Source of the DNA: Chiloscyllium plagiosum | Lineage: Eukaryota | Length of the DNA stretch: 64,000 nucleotides | Direction of reading: 5' to 3' | Assembly (NCBI RefSeq): GCF_004010195.1 | Contig: NC_057718.1 | Location: 73,492,234-73,556,233 of the forward strand | In this document: positions 18,741-63,520 of the stretch, piece after piece | Numbering within the stretch: the first letter of the stretch is position 1 | Layout of the letters: every line of letters begins with the position of its first letter | Program-made: the position numbers and the translations under genes | The notes under the pieces: model-generated | Databases searched by the model: none | Told to the model about the DNA's origin: nothing | The model's input: the letters and a program-made list of their open reading frames with translations, nothing else

Positions 18741-18981
18741 GTTCACAAGGAAATTGAAACCTGTGTGAATAGACAAACAACAGTTTTGTCTCCTTACATA
18801 CTCAGATGGACGAATTCACCTCATGGCATGCAGGGGAAATTTTAACCTGCTGCAGTGCATTGGTTTGGTTGCAAGTGGAGTTCAAAAATGCAACTGCTTG
18901 GGAAGTCAGCATTGCATTAATTGTGCATGACCCCCCTGGACACAAATTGCCTGTTGATGTTTGGTAATTACTGAATTGGAG

Positions 18982-19189
18982 CTGAAAATGTGTTGCTGGA
19001 AAAGCACAGCAGGTCAGGCAGCATCCAAGGAGCAGGAGAATCGTTGTTTTGGGCATGAGCCCATCTTCAGGCTCATGCCCGAAATGTCGATTCTCCTGCT
19101 CCTTGGATGCTGCCTGACCTGCTGTGCTTCCAGCAACACATTTTCAGCTCTGATCTCCAGCATCTGCAGTCCTCACTTTCTCCTTGAAG
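18982..19189. mobile_element. Penelope-derived fold-back insertion with 16-bp TSD
   Basis: ~80-bp inverted arms around 19065; AATTACTGAATTGGAG at 18966-18981 and 19190-19205; same sequence as the 3' end of the Penelope fragment at 41660-41790. Confidence 0.85.
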
Positions 19190-19209
19190 AATTACTGAAT
19201 TGGAGTACA

Positions 19210-21976
19210 GTACACCAACTGTTCTGCATCCGACTGCGGCAGGCATCTCAGTGTGAGTTCAGAGGCTGCTGGGTCCCTGTTTTCACGGAAACATGGCTTA
19301 GCGACAGAGTTCCAGACACTGCCATCCAGCCAGGCGGGCCCACCTTGTTTTGCACTGACAGAAATGCAGCTCTGTGCGATAAGGCTTGGTGTGAGGTTCT
19401 GTGTGTCTACATCAACACAAAATAGTGCAAAGACTCTGAGATAGTCTCCAGTTACTGCTCATCACTGGTGGAGTTTGTGACTGTTAGGTGCAGATCATTT
19501 TATTTGCCACAGGAATTCACCGTCGTCTTTCTAGTTGGGGTATATATTCTTCCCAGTGCTAATGCTAACGAAGCACTCTGTGAACTGTATAGGGCTATTA
19601 GTGGACGGCAGAACACACACCAAGATGGATTGTTTATTGTTGGTGGAGATTTCAACCATACGAATCTCAAGACTGTGCTTCCTAAATTCCATCAGCATAT
19701 GGACTTTGAGACGAGAGGGGAGAAAATGCTAGATCTGGTTTATACAAACATCCCCAACACAAACAGGTCAGAACCCTTGCCCCACTTCGGCTCCTCAGAC
19801 TACATCTCTGTTATGCTAACTCCAGCACACACACTGCTCATCAGATGTGTCAATCCAGTTCAGAAGCAGATGAAAACCTGGCCACCAGGAGTCATTTCCG
19901 CTTTTCAAGACTGTTTGAAGCATGCTGACTGGCATGTGTTCAGGGAGGTGGCAACCGAAGTCAATTCCATTAGCTTAGAGGTGTACACAGTGTCATTGAT
20001 TTGCTGTGTATTGATGACATCACTGTGTCCAAGACCATCACTTCTCGCCCCAACCAGAAGCTGTGGATGACCACAAAGGTGTGTGCGCTGCTGAGGACCC
20101 GTGATTCTACCTTCAGAGCAGATGACAAGGCAACCCTAACAACAACGAGTGCCAACCTGACCAGGGCCATCAAAGAGGCAAAGTGTGCACACACACAGAG
20201 AATACGCAGCCACCTTCAGAACAGTGGCGATACGCGGAGCATGTGGGGGGGCATCCAGGCCATCACCATCCACAGAACAACATCGCCTACTTCTGCTGGT
20301 GATGCCACTCTCCCGGATGAGTTGAATGACTTTTATACACGGTTTGAGGCACGAAATGACATGGATGAGAGAATGTCCACCACCTCCCACCCTCCAATTA
20401 CCAGGTGCTGTGTCTTACCATGGCCAACGTAAGGAAAATCCGATGCAGAGTCAACCTACGTAAGGCTGCTGGACCAGATAACATCCCTGGCAGTGTGGTC
20501 AGAGGATGCTCTCACAGACATCTTCAACATTTCCCTGAGTTGCGCCATAGTCTCAACATGCTTCAAGGCTGCTACCATAGTCCCCGTGCCGAAAAAGTCT
20601 TCAGCATCCTGTCTCAACAACTACCACCCTGTTGTGCTTACAGGTATCACCATGAAGTGTTTCAAGAGCCTCATGACCTTGCTGCACCCTCACTGGACAC
20701 TCTGCAGTTCATATATTATCCCAACTGCTCAACTGATGATGCCATTTCTACCACCCTCCATCTGGCCCTCACCCACCTGGAGAAGGAGGACACCTACGTC
20801 AGATTACTGTTCATAGACTTCAGTTCTGCATTTAACACTATCATTCCTCAGCACCTGACTGGAAAGCTATGTCTGCTGGGCCTAAATACCTCCTTTTGTA
20901 ACTGGATCCTGGACTTCCTGACTGGGAGACCTCAGTCAGTCCGGATTGGGAACAACATCTCCAACACCATCACACTGAGTACAAGGGACCCCAGGGCTGT
21001 GTGTTCAGTTCTCTGCTGTTTACCCTGCTGACACACAACTGTGCAGCAATGCACAGGTCGAGTCACATCATCAAGTTCGCTGATGACACAACTGTAGCGG
21101 GTCTCATCAGCACAAACAGTGAGTCAGTATACAGAGAGGAGGTGTAGCGGCTAACGGACTGGCTCAGAGCCAACAACCTGTCTCTGAACATAGACAAAAT
21201 GAAAGAGACTGTTTCTGACTTCAGGAGGGCATGGAGTGACCACTCTCCGCTGCACATTGACAACTCCCCTGTGAAGATCGTAAGAAGCAGCAAATTTCTT
21301 GGCTTATACCTGGCAAAGAATCATGCCCTCATCAACAGCTCTATAGCCAAGAAAACCCAGCAGCATCTCTAGTTTCTGTGCAGGCTGAGGAAAGCCCTCT
21401 TCCCAACCCCCATCCTCACCACATTCTACAGAGGGTTCATTGAGAGTACCCTGAGCTGCTGCATCATTGCGTAGTTTGGGAATTGCACTGTCTCAGATCG
21501 TAAGACCCTACAACGGATAGTGAGGACAGCTGAGAAGATCATCAGGGTTTCTTGTCCCTGCATTATAGACATTTACACCACACGCTGCATCTGAAAGGCT
21601 AACAGCATTATGGAAGACCCCACACATTCCTCACTCAAACTCTTCTCCCTCCTGCCATCCAGCAGAAGATACCGGCCATGAAACTGTGCAACAGTTTCTT
21701 CCCCCAGGCCATCAAGCTCCTTAACACAGTATGAACAGACTCTTTCCAGTTGAAATTTTTTGCATGACTTTGAATTGCTGCTAGAACAATATCTATTCAC
21801 TATCATTCTTTTATTACACTGTAATTTGCATGTTTTGCACTTATGCACGCTTGTATGATACTGTAGCTTGTGATGTCCATTTAGCACCTTGGTCCTGGAG
21901 GAACGCTGTCTCGTTTTTTACAGTATCAGTTGTATATGGTAGAAAGGACAAATAAAATCTACTCTATCTACTCTAC
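19210..21976 (+). mobile_element. Rex1/Babar-clade LINE, near-complete ORF2 pseudogene
   Basis: VFTETWL, VYILPSANA, GGDFNH, LDLVYTN, GSSD (APE endonuclease); [36 protein letters not shown] (RT); 3' AATAAA plus (TCTAC)n tail. Confidence 0.93.
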
Positions 21977-25634: not shown

Positions 25635-27160
25635 ATCTGTATGATTGTTCAAATAACAGCACCATTATTTAAGCCTAACTTGCACTATCTCAAAACATTT
25701 CAGCAGGTTGGCATTCATAAACATCTTCCTTACAGTAGATGCTGGTGCAGATTGACAGGCAGGAGAAGGCTAAGCATCAGTACACATGCTGTCATGGTCA
25801 TTCCAAAAGATGAGAGACTTAACAAACAATCCAGATCTTTTTCAATATATAATTTCAGTTCCAACACACTGTAAACTTTTGCTATAAATTCTGTGTCTTG
25901 CAATCTTATTCTTCACAATTACCTGATGAAGGAGCAGCGCTCCAAAAGTTAATGCTTCCAAATTAACCTGGTGTTGTGTGATTTTTAACTTTGTACACCC
26001 CAGACCAATACTGGCATCTCCAAATCAATCATCTGAGAGAGACAGCCATGAACAGTAGACACATAAATAATGTGGCTGGTGGGCTCTTGAGATAAAGTCC
26101 AATAGCTTATTTTCTTTACCAGTTTTGCTCTGATTCTCACCTCACAGAAATGTTACTCTCCCACTACATATAATAAAGGCATAGTTTCAGCAATTATTCA
26201 CCCGTCTTTACTTGCTGTTGTCACAGATCGTTAACCCTTCTTCAGTTCTTTCATTTTACTTATTGAAACTTTAGAGGACACCACAGTAAGAGGAAGAAAT
26301 AACTCCAGAACTCCATCACTGAACCTCACTTTCGAAAGCATCAGCTTAGAGATTACTACCCCTATAATTTACAATCTATAGTAGGGAGATCTTCACTGGA
26401 TGGACTTAACTCTTTGCAGTTAAAAATACAGCCACTTCACAAGCCCTTATTTGATGTTAAGCTCTCTTCCACCTTCTTTTATAAGTAAGGGAAAGTAGCT
26501 ACAAGAGAGTAACCTCATTTCTTGGCCATAGCACAGCATGTGTGATGAAGATTTTAAGAACCCAGCCTGAAGCAGTGAACTGTACAATGCAAACTTTTAA
26601 GTACATTGAGCAGACTGTCAATAATCTTCTATAATGTAACTGAAAGGGAATAGTTTCAACATCTATGGGGTCATTATGCATGGTATCTACACCTTTATAG
26701 TCAGTAATGGAGTATATGAATATTGCATTGATTGGACCCACAGTGAATTTTTGCAGATCTCCACTGATCATTCAGACTCCAATACGTTGGCTCTGGGCCC
26801 CAGCATGTCTACTGACTTGCAAAACATGTTTGAAATCATTCCACAACTCTTGTTCTCAGACAAACCAGCAAAATTGCTCAGTTACATTCATATTATCATG
26901 ACTTTGGCTCCAGAGCAATAAATGCTCATTGTGTGGTAGATGCAAAAGGTGTTTGATGAATCCAGCAATTAGGACCAAACTCTGAATGCTTTGGACAAAA
27001 GTGCTATACTTGTAGAACTCATTGTAGAGCAAACTTAAAGCATACTGCATTTTGTTATGAATGATTTAAAAAACCTGCTTTGAAAAGATGATATGCAAGA
27101 ATGAAAGTTGTATCCTGTCTCATCTTTTGTATCATTTGCAATGTAATGTAGTAGACTTGA
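25635..27160 (+). pseudogene. Possible eroded viral envelope/fusion glycoprotein remnant
   Basis: Frameshifted plus-strand translation with spaced Cys and N-glycosylation motifs: DCSNNST, MDLTLCS.KYSHF, AVNCTMQTF, GSLCMVSTP, TVNFCRSP; hydrophobic VVSCLIFCIICNV near 27105-27145. Confidence 0.35.
25860..26030 (+). mobile_element. Penelope-type terminal repeat fragment with hammerhead-like core
   Basis: CTGATGA-AGGAGC-AGC-GCTCC-AAAA at 25923-25947 (conserved GAAA decayed to AAAA). Confidence 0.6.
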
Positions 27161-28064: not shown

Positions 28065-28565
28065 GTAGACAAGCAGGAGACTGGAAGAACATAGCAAGCC
28101 AGGCAGCATCAGGAGGTGAAGAAGTCAACGTTTCAGGTATAACACTTCTTCAGGAATGGAGGTGGGGTAGGGGGAGCTGCAGATAAAGAGAGGGGGGCAG
28201 GGTTATGAGTGGGGAGAGGAGGGAATGGTGAGGTTTAGATAAGTGAACACAGGTCGAGGGTACTACCTGGTTGGTCAATAGGAGGAATGTATCCGGTTGG
28301 TAGCTGGAAGGAAGGATCGGTAGGATGTATGAGAGGGAAGAGGTGGGACTGGAGAGGAAGTCGGGGAATGGATGGGAAGATTATTTGAAATTGGAGAACT
28401 CAGTGTTGAGTCCTCCGTGCTGTAGGCAGCCCAGCTGGAAGATGAGGTGTTGTTCCTCCAATTTGTGGTCTGATTCACTGTGGCAAGGGAGGAGGCCAAG
28501 GATGGACATGTCGGAGTGGGACTGGGAGATCAGGCTGGCCCTTATGGCCTAGCTGAGATGCTCGA
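28065..28565 (-). mobile_element. Penelope-like element 3' fragment (GIY-YIG C-terminus plus terminal repeat)
   Basis: Minus translation KLEEQHLIFQLGCLQHGGLNTEFSNF; downstream CTGAAGA..GAAACGTT motif at 28153-28126. Confidence 0.8.
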
Positions 28566-29090
28566 TGAAATGTATCCCATATTCGCATTACTTACTAGAT
28601 AAAGAAGTTTCTTTAGAAACTCCTACTTCATGCTTTTGTAACTATTTTATATTTACTTTACTCTTTTCTACAAATGGGAACAGTTTTTCTGTATTATATC
28701 AAAGATTCTCAATTTTGAAGACCCTTACTGGTCTCCCCAGCCTTCTCTTTTAACAGAAAAAAACACAATCTGTTCATCCATTCTTAATAGGTGTAAAAAA
28801 AACTTAACACTTCAGAATCATTTTTATAGTTATTGTTTATACCATTGATAGTGCCTTTTATATCTTTTTTAAATAGCATGTTATAATACAACAGCAATAC
28901 TTACAATTGTGGTTAAATTGAATTTTGATACAAGTTTAGCATAATCTCTCTACTTTTCATATCTGTCAGCTGGAATAGTCTTTGTCATGGCTTTATTGAC
29001 CTGTGTCCCAACTACTTTTATCTTTGTACTCGCAAAGTTCCTTTGCTTTTCCACCCTGTTTAAATTCTAATTTTCCAAATAATAGGTGAC

Positions 29091-39990: not shown

Positions 39991-41079
39991 ACTGTCTGTT
40001 CACCCTCCCCCTTCAGAATTTTCTGCAGTCGATCTGAGTCATCCCTGACCTGGGAGGCAACATACCATTCGGGAGTCTTGTTTACGACCACAGAAATGCA
40101 TATCTACTCCCCTTACAATTAAATCCCCTAAGACTATTGCCCTTCCACTCCTTTTCCCATCCTTCGGTACAGCAGAGCTAACCACGGTGCCAAGAACTTA
40201 GCTATTGCTGCTTTCCCCTAGTGAGCCATCTCCCCCAACAGTATCCAAGATGGTATACTTGTTTTGGAGGGAGATGACCACAGGACCTCTTGCACTGCCT
40301 TTCTGCTCTTTCTCTGCCTTTTGGTCACCCTTTCCCTTTCTCTCTCAGCAATCCTAATCTACAGTGTGACCAATTCACGAAACGTGCTATCCACAACCTC
40401 CTCAGCATCATGTATGCCCCAAAGTGAGTCCATTCATAGCTCCAGAGCCATCATGCGGTCTAACAAGAGCTGCAACTGGACACATGTCTTGGACGTGAAG
40501 GAGTCAGGGACATCAGCTGTATCCCTGAGCTCCCACATTGAGCAAGAGGAGCATAACATGGATCTGAGATCTTCTGCCATTTTTAATTTTAAACTTTACC
40601 TAAATTGAGACTAAAGTTACGAAAAAGAAAGAGAAGTTTTTTTAACCAACTTACCACAACTTACTAAAATCCTTACCTTATCGATATACCACCATGTCCT
40701 TTTTTTTGGTTAGAGGAGGAGGGCAGGTGGGAGACACTATTGTGGGTATTGTCTCGGATTCAGCCACTGCCCGAATAAATCAGCTTTGTAAACAGTTTGC
40801 TTACCTTCCTGGCAGCCCTCTGGTCCTCGTTTTCTCTGCCCTTGCTGCAATTAAGATGGAGGCCGCAGACTCCCAAGGGAAGCTTTTTAAACAATTTGCT
40901 TATCTTCACAGCAGCCCCAGTTCTCGTTCTGTCCGCCCTCAATGCAATTAAAATGGAGGCCGCAGACTGAGATAGATAGATCCTTGATCAGTAGTGGAAT
41001 CAAATCCAAAGATTATGAGGAAAGGGCAGGAATGTGGACATGAGCAATTTCAGGTCAGCCATGACCCTATTGAATGATC

Positions 41080-41790
41080 ACACCTCTCCCCTCACCTCCG
41101 TCCAAAGCCCCAAAGGAGCCTTCCACATCCATCAGAGTTTTACCTGCACTTCCACACATATCATTTACTGTATCCGTTGTTCTTGATGTGGTCTCCTTTA
41201 CGTTGGGGAGACAGGACACCTACTTGCAGACTGCTTCAGGGAACATCTTCAGGACACCCACACCAAATAACCCCACTGCCCTTTGGCAGAACACTTCAAC
41301 TTCCCCCTCCCACGCTGCCAAGGACATGAGGTCCTGGGCCTCCTCCATTGTCACACCCTAACCACCCATGCCAGGAGGAAGAATGCCTCATCTTCCGCCT
41401 TGGGACCCCACAACCACGCAGCATCAATGTGGACTTCATTGGTTTACTTATTGCCTCTCCCCCCACCTTATCCCAGATCCAATCTTCCAACTTGGCACCG
41501 CCTGTCCTACCGGTCCATCTTCCTTCCCACCTATCCGCTCCACCCTCCTTTCTGACCTACCACTATTATCCCCAAATCCATCCGCCTATCGCACTCTGTT
41601 ACCTGTCCCCCAGCCCCATCCCCTCCCATTTATCTCTCTGCCCCCTTGACTCGTAAGCCTCATTCCTGATGAAGGGCTCTTGCCTGTAATGTTGATTCAC
41701 CTGCTCCTTGGATGCTGCCTGACCTGCTGTGCTTTTCCAGCACCACACTCTCGACTCTGATCTCCAGCATCTGCAGTCCTCGCTTTCTCA
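41080..41790 (+). mobile_element. Penelope-like element, 5'-truncated (GIY-YIG endonuclease plus 3' terminal repeat), 12-bp TSD
   Basis: FTCTSTHIIYCIRCS.CGLLYVGETG..L..CFREHL...AEHFN...EEECLIFRLGTPQPRSINVDF; TATTGAATGATC at 41068-41079 and 41791-41802; CTGATGA core at 41666. Confidence 0.92.
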
Positions 41791-42149
41791 TATTGAATGA
41801 TCGCCTACCCCGATCCTATTTTTTCTAATCTTATGGTCTTCAGTATAGCATAACATTGTGCTGAACAATGTCAAAAATCTTAACATTGTCTAATAAGCAT
41901 ATGACAAAGTCATGTTTCCTACCTATTTTCATGTCTCTTCATGAGATTTCTGAGTACAGGCATTGAGTCAGCTGTATCCTTTTCAGGAATTAAGTCAAAA
42001 TGCTCCTCTTCCACTTCTGTATACATTAGAGTTTGTTTCTCTATCTGATGATGTCATCTAGTACTTTAGGGAGATTACTGCTGAGATTAGTGTTGTTTTA
42101 CATAAATCTGTCAGCTTGCTTTATGGGCAGTGTAATCACCTTTGCATTG

Positions 42150-48165: not shown

Positions 48166-50075
48166 TGTAATCAAATATTTATATGGCTAGCCTCGTCAAG
48201 TTTCTCACAGATGTTGATGGATTAAGATTAGACAATGATAATGCATTGGAAGTCCCTGGGAGACAGTTAGAATGTCTGTTGGTGGAGATAATGTTGAAAT
48301 CCCTAAAGTTTTAACAACAGATGAATTTTCCAGTGAATTACAAAGAGCTGAAGAACAAGATCTTACACTTGTAGGCTGTTACTGTAGCAAACAAATCAAA
48401 ACCAATATAGATTTACCAATAATTAATGGGCTGCTATAAGCTTTACTAAAGAAAAGGCATTTTCAAGTCTACTAACTAACTCAACAGAAGTATGTCTTAC
48501 AAAACGTTTGCAAATCTTTTCTGGCTGAAATGCAGCATTTTCAGATTAATCCATAGTCACTGCCAATGCCCAAGCAGGACCAGTTCTTCCCACCACACAA
48601 GGTCAAAACTTCAAGTGAGCTTTGATAATTGATCCACTCTCTTATCAGTTTTTCTGGATTGGATTATCAACATATATTTTTGAGAGATATATCTTTGAAG
48701 TTCCTCATTCACTGAACCTGCAAATATCTCAACCATTCATTGTCTTTTTTGTGAACAGAATCCTCTCAACAGAACCAACCTGTTGGTTTGCAGCTTAAAT
48801 CATCGACTTGTTTCTCCAAATGTTAGCTTATTTTTCTCTGTTACCTGGAAATGCAGCTGTTTTTCTCCCAAATCACTCATGCAATATACCATTGCATTTC
48901 TGTGGCAACTGGATCAGATGGACATGAACCTATACTGAGCTGTAAATCAAGAATTCTCTGCTATACCTTTATTTAAATGCACATTCCAAAATATAATCTT
49001 GTGATGCTCAGCATTCATGCTGCTTCTTCTCAAAAATAGAATCATAAAATTTTACTGTACAGAAGGTGGACATTTGACATACTGTTTCTATACCAGGTCC
49101 CAAAACAGCTACTCAGCTAGTCCCACTCTCCAGCCCTATCTCAATAGCTCGATAACTTCATCACTTTCAAATATACATCCAGCCCCCTTTTAAAACCTTA
49201 TATGGAATCCACCTCCACCACTCTCCCAGGCAATGCATTCCAAATTGTAACAATTCTCTTAGACGTTTCTCCTCATTTCACTCCAAGCTGTCTTGCTAAC
49301 AGTCTTGAAATTGTAACCTCTAGTTACTGGCAGAATCAAGTGGCTTTAGTTGAACACTAAAGAGATGCTAAGAGACTATTTGGTATGTGGGATTACTGAT
49401 GTAATCACGCCTACTCGCTGACACCCAATTGGAATTCAAACAGGCACGACAACTGGTTTTGTCATTAAAATATGCAGAAAGTGGAGCACATGAGTTTCAG
49501 GGAATGCAGATGGAAGTGAACTCCGACTGAGTTTGGGGAACACCACTTGAGTGCAGGCAATTGCACAGCCTCACTCAGGACGTATCCTGAACAGAGGGAC
49601 TCTAAGTCAGCCCACAGCAAAATCCCAAAACAAAGCTAAGCCTCAGCCAAATTATTAAAATTTTCTTCAAGATCTGGGTTGGCAACCAATATGCAGACTT
49701 GAGACAGCAAAAGAGTTCCACCAGGCCTGGATTGAGTAAGATAACTCGTAGGCTGGTAACCGGGAGAGTGCACACCCTTGAAAGTCCACCTTTATCTTGG
49801 AAAAGTTAAATTGCTTAGGAACATCTAAATCAGAACCAATCAAATAAACATCTTGTTAAAAAGTCACTTGGTTCTAATGCATATAGATACTGCGTGGCTG
49901 GATCTGGATGACATGGTGATAGCAGGGAAGACAAATAAACAGCACTTAGAAACTTGGACGTAGACCTTTAACATTTCTCCAAGGCCTTAGAAGGAAAATA
50001 GGTGTGTTCCAGGCACCCCAAGTGATCTATTTGGACTAAAGAGTCAGCAAAACTAGGTTTAGACCTGTTAGAAGA

Positions 50076-50206
50076 AAGTGAGAACTGCAGATACTGGAGA
50101 TCAGAGTCGAGAGTGTGGTGCTGGGAAAACACAGCAGGTCAGGCAGCAAGCAGGGAGCAGGGGAATCAAAGTTTTGGGCATAAGCCCTTCATCAGGAATG
50201 GAGAAT
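50076..50206 (-). mobile_element. Penelope-derived short insertion with hammerhead-like core
   Basis: Minus CTGATGA-AGGGC-TTAT-GCCC-AAAA; imperfect 20-bp duplication at 50056-50075 and 50207-50226. Confidence 0.75.
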
Positions 50207-56984: not shown

Positions 56985-58335
56985 AGAGTCATAGAGATGT
57001 ACAGCATGGAAACAGACCCTTCTGTCCAACTCGTCCATGCTGATCAGGTATCCCAATCCAATCTCGTCCCACCTGCTAGCACCTGGCCCATATCTCTCCA
57101 AACTCTTCCTATTCATATACCCATCCAGATGCCTTTTAAATGTTGCATTTGTACCAGCCTCCACCACATCCTCTGCAGCTCATTCCATACACGTACTACC
57201 CTCAGCATGAAAAAGTTGCCCCTTAGGGTTTCTTTTATATCTTTCCCCTCTCACCCTAAACCTATGCCCTCTAGTTCTGGACTCCCTGACCCCAGGGAAA
57301 AGACTTTGCCTATTTATCCTATCCATGCTCCCATGATTTTATAAACCTCTATAAGGTCACCCCTCAGCCTCCGACACTCCAAGGAAAACAGCCCTAGCCT
57401 ATTCAACCTCTCCCTATAGCTCAAATCCTGCAACCCTGGCAACATCCTTGTGAATTTTTTCTGAACCCTTTCAAGTTTCACAACATCTTTCCGATAGGAA
57501 GGAAACCAGAATTACACGCAATATTCCAATAATGGCTGAACCAATGTCCTGTACAGCTGAAACATGACCTCTTAACTTGTGTACTCTACTCCGACTGATA
57601 AACGAAAACATACCAAACGCCTTCTTCATTATTCCATCTACCTGCAACTCCACTTTCAAGGAGCTATGAACCTGCACTCCAATGTCTCTTTGTTAAGCAC
57701 CACTCCCTAGGACCTTACCATTAAGTGTATTAGTGCTGCTCTAATTTTCTTTCCCAAAATGCAGCACTTCACATTTATCTAAATTAAACTCTATCTGCCA
57801 CTTCTCAGCCCATTGGTTCATCTGATCAAGATCCCATTGTAATCTGAGGTAACCCTCATTGCTGTTCATTACACCTCCAGTTTTGGTGTCATCTACAAAC
57901 TTACTACCTATACCTCTTAAGCTCACATCCAAATTATTTGTATAAATGATGAAAAGTAGTGGACCCAGCACAGATCCTTGTGGCACTACACTTGTGGCTC
58001 TACGGCTGGAGGAAGAGCGCCTCATCTTCCGCTTAGGAACCCTCCAACCACAAGGGATGAACTCAGACTTCTCCAGTTTCCTCATTTCCCCTCCCACCAC
58101 CTTGTCTCAGTTCCAACCCTCGAACTCAGCACCACCTTCCTAACCTGCAATCTTCTTCCTGACCAATCCGCCCCCACCCCTACTCTGGCCTATCACCCTC
58201 ACCTTATCACGCTCACCTCCACCACCACCCTCTGTCTTCTATCTTTGAGCCAGTTCTGCATCCAAATGGCTAGTTCTCCCTGAATTCAATGAGATCTAAC
58301 CTTGCTAACCAGTCTCCCATGGGGAACCTTGTGAC
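56985..58335 (-). mobile_element. 5'-truncated CR1 LINE interrupted by a Penelope fragment (~57990-58215, plus)
   Basis: VPQGSVLGPLLF, KFVDDTK, FKRHLDGYMNRK; insert reads RLEEERLIFRLGTLQPQGMNSDFSSF. Confidence 0.9.
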
Positions 58336-58554: not shown

Positions 58555-61500
58555 GGTTCTGCTCCCTCTAAGATCATGGCACATATCAGTCGGTGTAATG
58601 TGTACATGTAAATAAAGTGTGATTTGATGGTACGATACCAGCTTTCATGGAGTTATTTTCCTGATGATGAGAGGAAAATATAACCCCGAAGAGATTCACT
58701 TGCAACAGTTATCTTTGAGTTGTGCTAAGCATTTCTGGCATCATACTGCTATTTAGGAAGCTTGACTTCTTTGATCCTGCCATTAAAGACTGGGCCCAGT
58801 ATGTGGAAAGACACGTTACTTTTTCTGAACAAGTGACATTGGGGCAAATGAAAAGCAAGAAGTAACTCTCCTGACAGCTTGTGGACTCGCAGCTTTTTCA
58901 GTTATCAGGAGCCTAATTTTCCAAGCGGCACCAGGTACTAAAACTTTTCAAGAGTTGACAGATTTAATTAAGTCAGGAATATTACAATGAATACCTCCTC
59001 TAAATACTAAGATGCTTTGGTTTTATTCAGCAGTTTGAGAACCAGGGGAGTCCGTGTTGGTATGTTTTTGACGAGGTTAGGATGACTGGCAGAGGGCATG
59101 TGACTTTGGTTTAACCCTAAGTGAGATGTTGAGATGTGAGATTAATGATGTGCCCATGCAAAAGCATTTACGAGCTGAAGCCCAATTGGACTTCAAACAG
59201 GGACTACATTAGAAAATGCTGCAATGGAGCATATAAGTTACAGGGTATGCCGACAGAAGTGGACACTGTTGCCAGGCTGACTGAGCTTGGGAAACACCAT
59301 TTCAGTAAAGGCACACATCCTGACCAGGAGGACTCTAGGTCTGCCCACAGCAAAAGGCTTGGATCGGCGCAACATCGAGGGCCAAAGGGCCTGTACTGCG
59401 CTGTATTCTTCTATGTTCTATGTTCTAAAGGCAAGCCTCAGCTAAACACTCAGCATTTTATTGAGGATGTGGGCCAGCATGCCATTGTAGTTGTCGCTTA
59501 TCTGCGGACTCGAAACTGCAAAAGAGTCCCATTCAGCTTGAATTGAGTAACAGCACTCATAGGCCACTATCCAGGAAAGTGCACACTCCAGAAAGTTCAC
59601 TGACATGTGGTTTGAAACAGCTAAATTGCTTCAGAACATCCAGATGATAACCTATCAAAATAAATGTCTGATTAAGTGGTCACCCAGTTCTCATGGAGGT
59701 CAATACCAGCGTGGCTCTATCAGTGATTGCAGAGTCAGCCTTTAACAACATTCTCCCTGGACTCCAACCCTTAAGTTTGCATAAGACGTCAACCAGGCTG
59801 AGAACCTATACAGGGAAGCAGCTACAGATAAAGGGTAGAACTTCAATTTTAGTCTCTTATGAAAAGAAGCTTGTTCAGTTACCACTGACCATAGTAAAAG
59901 GCTCTGGCCCAAGTTTGGGGCAACTTTGGTTGAGAAATGTTCAACTTGATTGGCTCTATATCTTCTGATTAGGAAATGGCTGCCTGAATGACATCCTAAT
60001 CAAATACCTGGAAGTTTTTCAGAAGTTCTGAGGACTATCAAAGGTGCCAAGGCCGCCTTACATAGAGTCATAGAGATGTACAGCACGGAAACAGACCCTT
60101 CGGTCCAACTCGTTCATGCCGACCAGATATCCCAACCCAATCTAGTCCCACCTCCAGCACCTGGCCCAAATCCATCCAAACCGTTCCTATTCATATACCC
60201 ATCCAGATGCCTTTTAATGTTGCAATTGTACTAGCCTCCAAGTCATAGAGTCATGCAGCACAAAAACAGACCCTTTGGTCCAACCAGTCCATGCTGAACA
60301 TAATCCCAACTAAACTAGTCCCACTTGCCTGCTCCTGGCCCATTTCCCTCCAAACCTTTCCTATTCATGTACTTATCCAAATATCATTTAAAGTTGTATC
60401 TATATCCACATCCACCACTTCCTCAAGAAGTTCATTTCACACACAAATCACCCTTCGTGTAGAAAATTTGCCTTGCATGTCATTTTTAAATCTCTCTTAT
60501 GCTGACCATGAAGCAATCCATGATTTTGCAAGGCTTCCCTGGTACCATTTGCCTTACGTGCAAAAGTAGAGGCAGAACTCAGGAGGTTGGAAAGCGAAGG
60601 AATCATCAAACCAGTACAGTTTGTGTAAAGGGCAGCACCGGTCACACTGATTGTAAAGCCTAGTGGGTTAATTTGCCTTTGTGGGAATTTTAAACAAATA
60701 AGAAACCACTTTTCAAAAGTGAATAAACATCCAATCCCTCACATAGAGGACTTATACACAAAACTGGCACAGGGGTTGTCCTTCATGAAGCTAGACATGA
60801 GCCATGGGTACCTGCAAATGCAATTAGACGAGGATTTCCAGAGGTTTGCCACAGTTAATACTCATAAAGGTTTTTATCAATAAACCAGATTGCCTTTTAG
60901 GTATCATCAGCCTGCACCATTTTCCAGTGGTCGATGGAGACCATTTTACTAGGTCTTCCCTAGGTCGCCATTTATCTAATAACAGGGAAGACCAATAAAG
61001 AGCATATGGAGAACCTAGACATGGTGCTCAAACATTTTTCCAAGATGGATGTATGCCTTAGGAGGGAAAAATGTCTAGGGTGTTTCATGCACCCTAAGTA
61101 ACCTACTTGATCCACAGAGTCAACAAGACTGGGTTACACCAGTTGGAAGACAAAGTGAGGGTGATCAAAGATGCTCTGGTCCTCATATCTGTACCAGAGC
61201 TTAGGTCTTCCCTTGGGTTGGTAAATTATTATGGAAAATTCATACATAGCCTGACCTCCACCCTGTCAGCAGGATAATCGACGTTTCGGGCATGAGCCCT
61301 TCTTCAGGGGCTTCATCCTGAAGAAGGGCTCATGCCCGAAACATCGATTCTCCTGCTCCTTGGATGCTGTTTGACCTGTTGCGCTTTTCCAGCAACACAT
61401 TTTCAGCTCTGATCTACAGCATCTGCAGTCCTCACTTTCTCTTCCATCCTGTCACCCTCACATCTGCTATTGAAAAAGGGTGTTTCTTGGAAATGGTCTC

Positions 61501-63520
61501 GTAGCCAAGGTGTAGCCTTTCGGGAAGTGAAGAAGCAACTATTGATGTTAAAGATGTTGGCCCATTACGACCTCAAGCGAGATGTTCTACTAACATGCTG
61601 ACATCAGGATAGTGTTGGCTCACTGGTGGCCCAGCAGAAAGGAATAGTTCCTGGACTTCAGCTGAGGCCAGATGAAAATAGAACTAGAGCTACAGCTAGA
61701 GATAGAGATAAAGATGGAGATAGAGTGCCCAAATAGAGAAAGAGGGTTTGGCAGTCATCTTTGGTTTGAGGAAATTTCACCAACACCTTTTATGGATGTA
61801 AATTTGTAATAGTAACGGACTGCTTTAAGTAGGGATACTTAAAGGGGACAGGGCCATTGCAGCCTACAGCTTCTGTTCGAATTCAGCAGTGGCCTCTTAT
61901 TCTGAGTGCAGACAGTTACAGGTTGCAACATTGTCCAGGAGGCCAAGTGGCAAATGCTGATGCTTTGAGTTGCCCCCAATGGCAGATACACCAGTGGTGG
62001 TTCTGCCACTAGAAGATTACATTCTGATTTTAAAATTTCTGATCACTGCTGACAATATCAAACTGTGGAAGAATAATATTCACATCCTGGCAAAACTAAA
62101 ACAGCCGATGATGATGGAGAAACAAAAGGGCCACCACAACCAGAATTGATACCTTTCTGGACCTGATAAGGCCAGATTATCAATGTGGATGTCATATTAT
62201 TATGGGGAGCAATAGTGATTGGCCAGAGCAAAGGTCACTGCCAGAAACTAGCAGAACTCCACCAGGGTCATCCAGGGGTTTCCAAAATGTAGATATTCAT
62301 GACAGGTTATGTCTGGTGGCCAGAATTGGATGCCAACTTAGTTGTGTTTATGCAGTCGGACACAGAATGTCAACAAGGACAAAGATTACCAACAGCAGCT
62401 CCCTGATACTCATGAGAATGGCCGGGCAAACCTCAGTTACAAATCGGCTATGCTGGTCCTTTCATGGGCTCAATGTTCTTGACCATTGTGTACGCCCATC
62501 CAAAGTGGTTGAGTGTACATATAATTCATTCATCAAGTATGGGGATGATGATTGAAACGTTGCAAGCACCTTTTCAATACATGGCCTCCGGAGATGTTGG
62601 TCACAGAAAATGGGTAACATTTATCAATAGGGAATTCGAGTATTTCCTAAAGTTGAATGTCATTCAGTATGTAAGGATAGCCCTGTACCATCCATCGTCC
62701 AATGGTCTGGCGGAGAGAGCAGTCCAAACTTTGAAAGCAGGCTTAAAGAAACAGCCTATAGTTTTACTTGTGACAAGACTGTCCTACTTCCTGTTTCTTT
62801 GTAGGATCACCCCCCAACAGGGATAGCTCCAGCAGAGTTACGAATGGGAAGAGATTAAACTTGATCTTCCTGCATCAGGTTAAACTAGATCTTCCTGGAC
62901 CTGGGAGTGGGGAGAGAGTGAAATGGCTTCAGGAACGTCAATACCGGACATGACTCCTCTAAGCAAGAGAGACACTTTACTTCAGAGGACAAAGTTTGTG
63001 TCGAAAACAGAGTTGGCTCTGTATGGATAACAGGTATTGTTGGCACAAGATCAGCTCCCATGGCATACAAATTTCAGGTAAGAGAGGTGGTCCTGAGCAA
63101 ACATATCAACCACTTGAAAGCATATCCAGCAAGGTGTCAGAACCTATGGGTTCTCCCCTTCCACTTGCATCGAAGAAACTTCTGAGGACGAGATGGACAT
63201 GAGAGATGTCATAGTCTCAATGCCATTACTGCCTGAAGAAGAAGAGGAATTTCTTCCAAGACACTTCAGACACAAGAAGCGGGCTATGGTCTGATATACG
63301 CCACAGCATGTGAGGCAGAGTTGGAGGAAACAGACCTAGCGTGAAAACGCCCAAGGGAAGTTACTGGAAAAAGAATGGACCTATATCCTATCATTTAGAG
63401 CAGGAGGGATGTAGTGATTGGAATAAGTTCAACCAGGTAGACTGCATAGAATATGATTACTCTGATTGGGCAGTTAACCTGGTCCAATCAGGGAGTCCTG
63501 ACTGACAGGTACAAACAAAT
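58555..63520 (+). mobile_element. Mag-like Gypsy LTR retrotransposon, near-complete but decayed (gag-PR-RT-RH-INT)
   Basis: 5' LTR end ~58660 and decayed TGGCGACGAG-type PBS; gag FDPAIKDWAQYVER; PR MEVNTSVALSVI; RT KLDMSHGYLQ..VNTHKG; ELRSSLGLVNYYGKF; INT ELHQGHPG..WWP, YHPSSNGLAERAVQTLK; PPT then 3' LTR from 63410. Nested: CR1 tails (59358-59428, 60062-60497) and a Penelope unit. Confidence 0.92.
61269..61442. mobile_element. Penelope-derived fold-back insertion with two hammerhead-like cores
   Basis: Inverted arms 61269-61308 and 61317-61356; TCCA(C/T)CCTGTCA duplication at 61257-61268 and 61443-61454. Confidence 0.85.

Follow-up and report, generated by a model that had tools for sequence, protein, structure and literature searches.

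A 174-bp insertion in a decayed LTR retrotransposon

The DNA analysed here is a 64-kb stretch of Chiloscyllium plagiosum, referred to as the window. It contains an insert of 174 bp at 61269-61442 (the 61k insert), whose existence was confirmed together with the near-perfect 12-bp TSD that the first-pass annotation had ascribed to it: the two TSD copies agree in 11 of 12 bases, with one mismatch. The probability of such a match by chance is 3e-6 at one register and ~0.005 over 40 × 40 registers. In order along the locus, we distinguish:

60533-62826, plus strand: decayed LTR retrotransposon pol, serving as landing site only; order RT, RNase H, integrase, with many stops and frameshifts
61257-61268, plus strand: left TSD, 12 bp, 11/12 identical to 61443-61454
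61269-61308, minus strand: inverted, shortened pseudo-LTR (pLTR) copy; core C3 at 61307, GUC triplet, stem I of 1 bp at the junction
61309-61316, no strand: 8-nt loop, made of ~1 junction base and the 5′ edge of the direct arm; loose contig ends at 61316
61310-61409, plus strand: direct pLTR copy; core C3 at 61318, 4-bp stem II, AUC triplet, extra A at 9/10.1
61410-61442, plus strand: Penelope-like element (PLE) 'tail', 33 nt, on one arm only; the inverted arm of a sister copy at 19k stops at the equivalent of 61409
61443-61454, plus strand: right TSD; five of the contig pieces listed begin exactly at 61443

The inverted arms (61268-61308 and 61317-61357) are 41 nt long, 95% complementary and separated by the 8-nt loop. 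This 41-bp hairpin compares with a longest hairpin of 11-15 bp when the 3 kb around the insert were shuffled 30 times, and the RNA fold of the insert has z = -11.1. The left arm is wholly contained within the right arm, and the inverted repeat is not terminal, as nothing pairs with the right 85 bp. No tandem array was detected over the insert.

On the host flanks, Pfam returned RVT_1 (E=1.4e-4), RT_RNaseH_2 (E=0.0027) and rve_3 (E=0.0044), all under the curated cut-offs because this host copy is decayed. The putative label Gypsy, given to the surrounding pol in the earlier description, rests on the order of RT, RNase H and integrase. Within the host LTR element, further non-pol sequence occurs at 61600-61745, where 61670-61725 is an AGAT-rich microsatellite. 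Upstream, at 60066-60396 (plus strand), lie two diverged head-to-tail units of ~174 bp, 80% identical, which also match dispersed repeats at 11.5k and 57k; this repeat is likely a LINE 3′ end, and the agreement of its unit length with that of the insert looks coincidental.

We aligned public contigs of three organisms to an 811-bp stretch around the insert at 85% likeness. Other copies of the host element bypass the insert, a joint from 61265 to 61486 being present in 5, 1 and 2 contigs of the three runs. Two pieces starting at 61443, from organisms B and C, look orthologous (3 differences in 150 and 12 in 227); beyond the aligned part they have another 38 and 24 letters, with no match to the insert. 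The insertion site is thus probably empty in these two organisms. One TSD, combined with empty sites in related contigs, supports a single insertion event and upholds the earlier proposal that both arms arrived as one unit.

The near-perfect 41-bp hairpin, scoring 61.7 bits against mir-3179 and 51.4 bits against mir-942, could also be taken for a domesticated RNA gene, i.e. a miRNA or endo-siRNA precursor. Both scores are far below the gathering values (90 and 100) and reflect shape only, and we rejected the two miRNA matches on these grounds. In RNA run X21 (of which ~2% was read), flank depth did not exceed 1 and 6 of 2,244 aligned reads were at least 99% alike. As the site also seems to be empty in two related organisms, a hairpin RNA gene is very improbable.

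Sister copies and identity of the family

The family has five loci in the window, the direct arm recurring at four besides 61k:

18966-19205, no strand: sister head-to-head insertion (18982-19189; the 19k copy) with a perfect 16-bp TSD, a tail-less inverted arm and a tailed direct arm
28081-28584, minus strand: older related PLE subfamily copy (28k), endonuclease C-terminus followed by a variant hammerhead pLTR
41068-41802, plus strand: sister 5′-truncated PLE (41080-41790, 711 bp; the 41k copy) with GIY-YIG C-terminus, C-rich 3′ region and the same pLTR and tail
50073-50201, minus strand: solo pLTR plus tail (50k), no convincing TSD in the search

The 41k copy ties the hammerhead module to a coding element. 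It is bounded by a perfect 12-bp TSD, and upstream of its pLTR, at 41082-41372, we found a GIY-YIG fragment whose frame is broken and whose Pfam match (E=0.0029) lies below cut-off. This fragment had one match among five candidates, the Chiloscyllium punctatum protein P0001 (73% identical, E=1.8e-37), with tblastn homology beginning at 41079, i.e. at the TSD edge. P0001 consists of RT (RVT_1 E=0.0077) and GIY-YIG parts, with a Cys pair inside GIY-YIG and a CX4CxxC linker, just downstream of whose equivalent the 41k copy starts; it has 801 relatives, the best named ones being from sharks and rays. A CX2-5CxxC linker between RT and EN is given as the mark of the Neptune and Nematis clades of PLEs (PMC8557442), and its presence in P0001 sets this family relative apart from Penelope/Poseidon. 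Over 126 bp, the 41k copy, a member of a sister subfamily, is 85% identical to 61k.

Because GIY-YIG copies carry the same end (41k, with the older 28k copy also encoding endonuclease), the hammerhead module can be assigned to the pLTR end of a PLE. The right arm of the 61k insert is this terminal pseudo-LTR module, composed of a minimal hammerhead, ~60 nt and the 33-nt tail, and the left arm is a partial inverted copy of it. We hold with high confidence, then, that an EN+ PLE of the Neptune/Nematis type inserted here in a shark genome and that the resulting 61k copy was dead on arrival. None of the window copies extends into the RT, and no full-length parent that combines an intact ORF with the exact 61k pLTR was seen; Pfam gave no match for three of seven short fragments. 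At 57991-58200 (plus strand) there is a third C-terminal endonuclease fragment of a PLE; it has a C-rich 3′ region, but no pLTR follows it.

The 19k copy is also head-to-head, and the option of an 'inverted pseudo-LTR' in the first-pass annotation matches both this structure and that at 61k. Its centre differs from that of 61k, being a 2-nt GG overlap located inside stem II. The inverted arm is ~90 bp long and terminates exactly at the tail-less boundary, while the last 33 or more nt are on the direct arm only; each arm therefore contains sequence absent from the other, the 5′ core on the left and the tail on the right. The last 3 nt of the TSD are common to the start of the inverted arm. A decayed non-LTR endonuclease/RT region (ORF pieces 19426-21031) follows closely downstream of this copy.

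TSDs were found at three of the five loci, with lengths of 12, 16 and 12 bp (61k, 19k and 41k), and no convincing one was found at 28k. Being short and possessing an inverted repeat and a TSD, the 61k insert has the general appearance of a MITE or other DNA-transposon derivative. Inverted repeats at both termini and a fixed TSD length are, however, lacking at 61k: the repeat is non-terminal, with the right 85 bp unpartnered, and TSD length varies (12, 12, 16). The same end moreover follows RT-element coding sequence, and the 41k copy refutes this assignment, to which we give almost no credence.

Complex insertions of EN+ PLEs are described as having an inverted 5′-truncated pLTR, a tail and an 8-10 bp TSD (PMC3846280, PMC8557442). 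The copies studied here resemble these insertions in the head-to-head inverted pLTR, the heavy 5′ truncation, the 30-40-bp tail on one arm and the variable-length TSD enclosing the unit. They differ from the EN+ examples given there in that the 61k stub is without coding sequence and its inverted arm is only 40 bp long, and the TSDs are 12-16 bp as compared with 8-10 bp in the rotifer examples. The kind of element is already known, since inverted pLTR, tail and TSD, as well as opposite-strand pairs of minimal hammerheads, are published PLE features. We found no literature on this shark PLE family; Repbase and Dfam, which were outside the search, may contain it.

Incomplete hammerhead cores in the two arms

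Each 61k arm reads CUGAAGA-A-GGGC-UCAU-GCCC-GAAAC, followed by GUC on the minus strand and AUC on the plus strand, exactly as previously written for both strands. Both arms have CUGANGA, the extra base at 9/10.1, G10.1-C11.1, GAAA and NUH, and helix III is absent; the motif features of a PLE-type minimal hammerhead, recognised in the first-pass annotation, are thus present. Two of its statements hold for one core each. The ACGT palindrome is kept by the minus core, but the plus core reads ACAT, owing to a CpG-type G>A change at 61343, where G is the commoner family base in the contig alignments. A stem I of ~3 bp is found in the plus core (3 contiguous bp) but not in the minus core (1 bp), and there are 2 bp in the 41k and 50k copies; helix I accordingly falls short of the ~4-5 bp of a PLE minimal hammerhead. 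The 5′ strand of stem I forms the direct-arm 5′ edge within the loop and is one base shorter than in the family form, and the inverted arm extends ~12 nt beyond the predicted cleavage site before it stops. Neither 61k core is complete.

Minimal hammerheads of metazoan PLEs occur in part as opposite-strand pairs, and their monomers are described as inactive and their dimers as having low activity (PMC4209133). The shark motifs are like them in lacking helix III, in the extra base at 9/10.1, in G10.1-C11.1 and, where the palindrome is intact (at 61k, the minus core), in the palindromic 15.2-16.2, and likewise are mostly dispersed single motifs with some opposite-strand pairs. Helix II has 4 bp here versus 7-8 in the Schistosoma families, helix I has 2-3 bp versus typically 4-5 (2 in D. 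virilis), and the 61k cores are ~10 bp apart versus 100-700 bp in the pairs of that study (PMC4209133). Shark names were not found in one supplementary table of the same paper.

The hairpin itself is predicted to counteract the ribozymes. In the full transcript of either strand, stem II has a pairing probability of 0.0, as opposed to 0.97-0.99 in a solo arm, and forcing stem II within the hairpin transcript costs ~39 kcal/mol. By these folds, the hairpin buries both cores and would prevent either ribozyme from folding. Furthermore, the geometry of a head-to-head pair never places two sense cores on one RNA, as a dimer would require. Lunse et al. 2017 are said to have dealt with such dimeric cleavage of PLE hammerheads. 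That there are 'ribozymes on both strands' follows from the inverted duplication and is merely its consequence.

Of the five complete arms in the window, four show damage to the core or the palindrome, for the most part at CpG sites, which is what neutral decay would produce. Among the seven window arms, no pair showed a two-sided change and 500 of 500 shuffles scored as high, a comparison that has little power with so few and similar sequences. We infer that the hammerhead of the 61k copy is inert and decaying neutrally.

A covariance-model search, proposed earlier as a check, did not recover the motif: Rfam hammerhead models gave no match at the gathering score in the window, and the 12 matches that a 401-bp stretch had at E-values of up to 10 did not include one. 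Such an absence would be expected because the motifs lack helix III. The exact 25-nt core pattern had 0 loci in metagenome contigs. PolyA single-cell reads, a library type that cannot show cleavage ends, revealed no position where many molecules begin or end. A second and different hammerhead-like core is found at 25923-25950 (plus strand), with CTGATGA, an extra A, a 5-bp stem II (GGAGC/GCTCC) and a damaged GAAA; it probably belongs to another PLE family.

Junction diversity and origin of the fold-back

On the 811-bp stretch there were 53,496, 46,000 and 34,423 contig records from the three organisms, of which almost all fell on the insert. Summed depth in run X1, which is not a copy number and was not used as one, reached ~6.1 million on the arm, 13,264 over the loop (61310) and ~9 on a single-copy-like flank contig; depth across the loop is therefore ~0.2% of arm depth. 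Five loci per 64 kb would place the family copy number at tens to hundreds of thousands.

The contig joints, whose sides of 20-30 nt at 85% likeness may come from repeats, suggest that the centres of head-to-head copies vary. Among the 15 joints listed (there were 539 more), 10 link 61298-61309 to varied points at 61344-61387; the aligned contigs often have small indels in the loop region. These joints support junction diversity, for which the basis is two window copies plus the short contig joints, but are no proof of it. Since one copy does not share its centre and arm lengths with the next, the fold-back would seem to be formed anew with every insertion and not passed on as a unit.

This bears on the proposal, made in the first-pass annotation, of a distinct non-autonomous fold-back element of the retrozyme type. 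Spelled out, such an element would be transcribed, would be self-processed through its hammerheads and would owe its mobility, as a 174-nt unit, to the enzymes of PLEs. Both arms are indeed enclosed by one TSD, many family copies seem to begin just upstream of the core (686, 674 and 540 loose ends at 61316), the 126-bp unit occurs as head-to-tail dimers, and a pLTR origin is proposed for animal retrozymes (bioRxiv 10.64898/2026.07.22.740005). The 61k insert also resembles the non-LTR retrozymes in being non-coding, PLE-related and of hammerhead type I. In the descriptions of non-LTR retrozymes, however, head-to-tail tandems of 150-450 bp bear canonical motifs and give rise to circular RNAs (PMC7229834; Li et al. 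bioRxiv 2026). The 61k locus is head-to-head instead, with minimal and broken motifs: its units are not head-to-tail, and without helix III its motif is not the canonical type I, which has this helix as well as loop contacts. In addition, centres and arm lengths vary between copies, loop depth is only ~0.2% of arm depth, the cores are sequestered and each is incomplete, and the seven window arms show no covariation (with little power). As the same end occurs on truncated coding PLE copies, the proposal of a distinct element did not hold up, and we consider it unlikely.

How, then, would a PLE leave a head-to-head stub? In the model that we favour by a small degree, the PLE protein would have cut the 61k target with a 12-bp stagger, and both target ends would have primed reverse transcription, one cDNA starting from the tail end and the other further in. 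Both cDNAs would have been extended to just upstream of the hammerhead and then linked head-to-head through end-joining. Such twin priming is favoured because a purified PLE protein, PAc of the Anolis carolinensis Poseidon element, cuts and extends both target strands, from two internal RT starts that bound the tail; hammerhead cleavage is unneeded in vitro (PMC11167929). As with PAc, the tail of the shark copies is explicable by two internal RT starts, and copies do not start at the cut site (PMC11167929). The 19k copy fits twin priming best, since each arm holds sequence that the other lacks. Twin priming at two normal starts does not predict the end of the 61k inverted arm, which matches neither family end.

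For the 61k copy, this arm end would be better accommodated by snap-back, in which one target-primed cDNA reached the template 5′ end, folded over an 8-nt loop, copied itself for 41 nt and then joined to the second target end. The left arm is nested in the right arm and ends at no family RT start, as self-copying would have it, and junction palindromes were interpreted as self-priming by Arkhipova et al. 2013 (PMC3846280). The 19k copy speaks against snap-back: its arms hold mutually absent sequence, which would need a later deletion of the centre, and the end of its left arm coincides with the tail-less boundary. Extension of both target strands by PAc in vitro (PMC11167929) also disfavours it. 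We rate snap-back as possible, though the less probable of the two; it competes only with the twin-priming step and leaves the identity of the insert as a PLE remnant unchanged.

Taken by itself, the 61k locus is of little importance, being a neutrally decaying repeat within another dead repeat. The formation of inverted pLTRs in PLEs was termed undefined in a 2021 survey (PMC8557442), and the many short TSD-bounded copies in the shark are a natural record of the start and stop points of RT. This record could separate twin priming from snap-back, and could show whether hammerhead cleavage ever defines the template end.

Several observations concern these stop points. In the 50k copy, the left arm of 19k and the two arms of 61k, the start lies at most ~10 nt upstream of the core. 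Contigs with loose, heterogeneous ends at 61316 numbered 686, 674 and 540 in the three runs, a count subject to bias in that it is the long contigs that reach into unique flank. There was no pile-up of ends at the predicted hammerhead cut site in the alignments. The initiator consensus YYANWYY is degenerate; a match to it occurs at -6 in three sister copies and is absent from the 61k copy. Weakly, this suggests that the short copies run to the RNA 5′ end. At the other boundary, back-joints of tail size (61433-61445 back to 61409-61412) accord with the 33-nt tail, and some contigs have tail-only tandem duplications at these positions.

The hammerhead itself would belong to the parent PLE, in which two head-to-tail copies could pair via the ACGU palindrome. 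A head-to-tail joint (61441 back to 61316) was present in 41, 37 and 24 contigs, i.e. as rare true tandems of the 126-bp unit, and no form of the family other than these dimers could assemble a dimeric hammerhead. Their occurrence leaves room for a side branch of the family with a retrozyme-like character. A bolder scheme, to which we assign a low probability, is that the module of ~126-133 nt is no random truncation but a complete 'strong-stop' copy from the RT start to an RNA 5′ end located just upstream of the hammerhead, that dimers self-cleave and circularise, and that head-to-head copies silence the family by hairpin RNA. If true, a minimal retrozyme of ~126 nt would be emerging from a PLE end.
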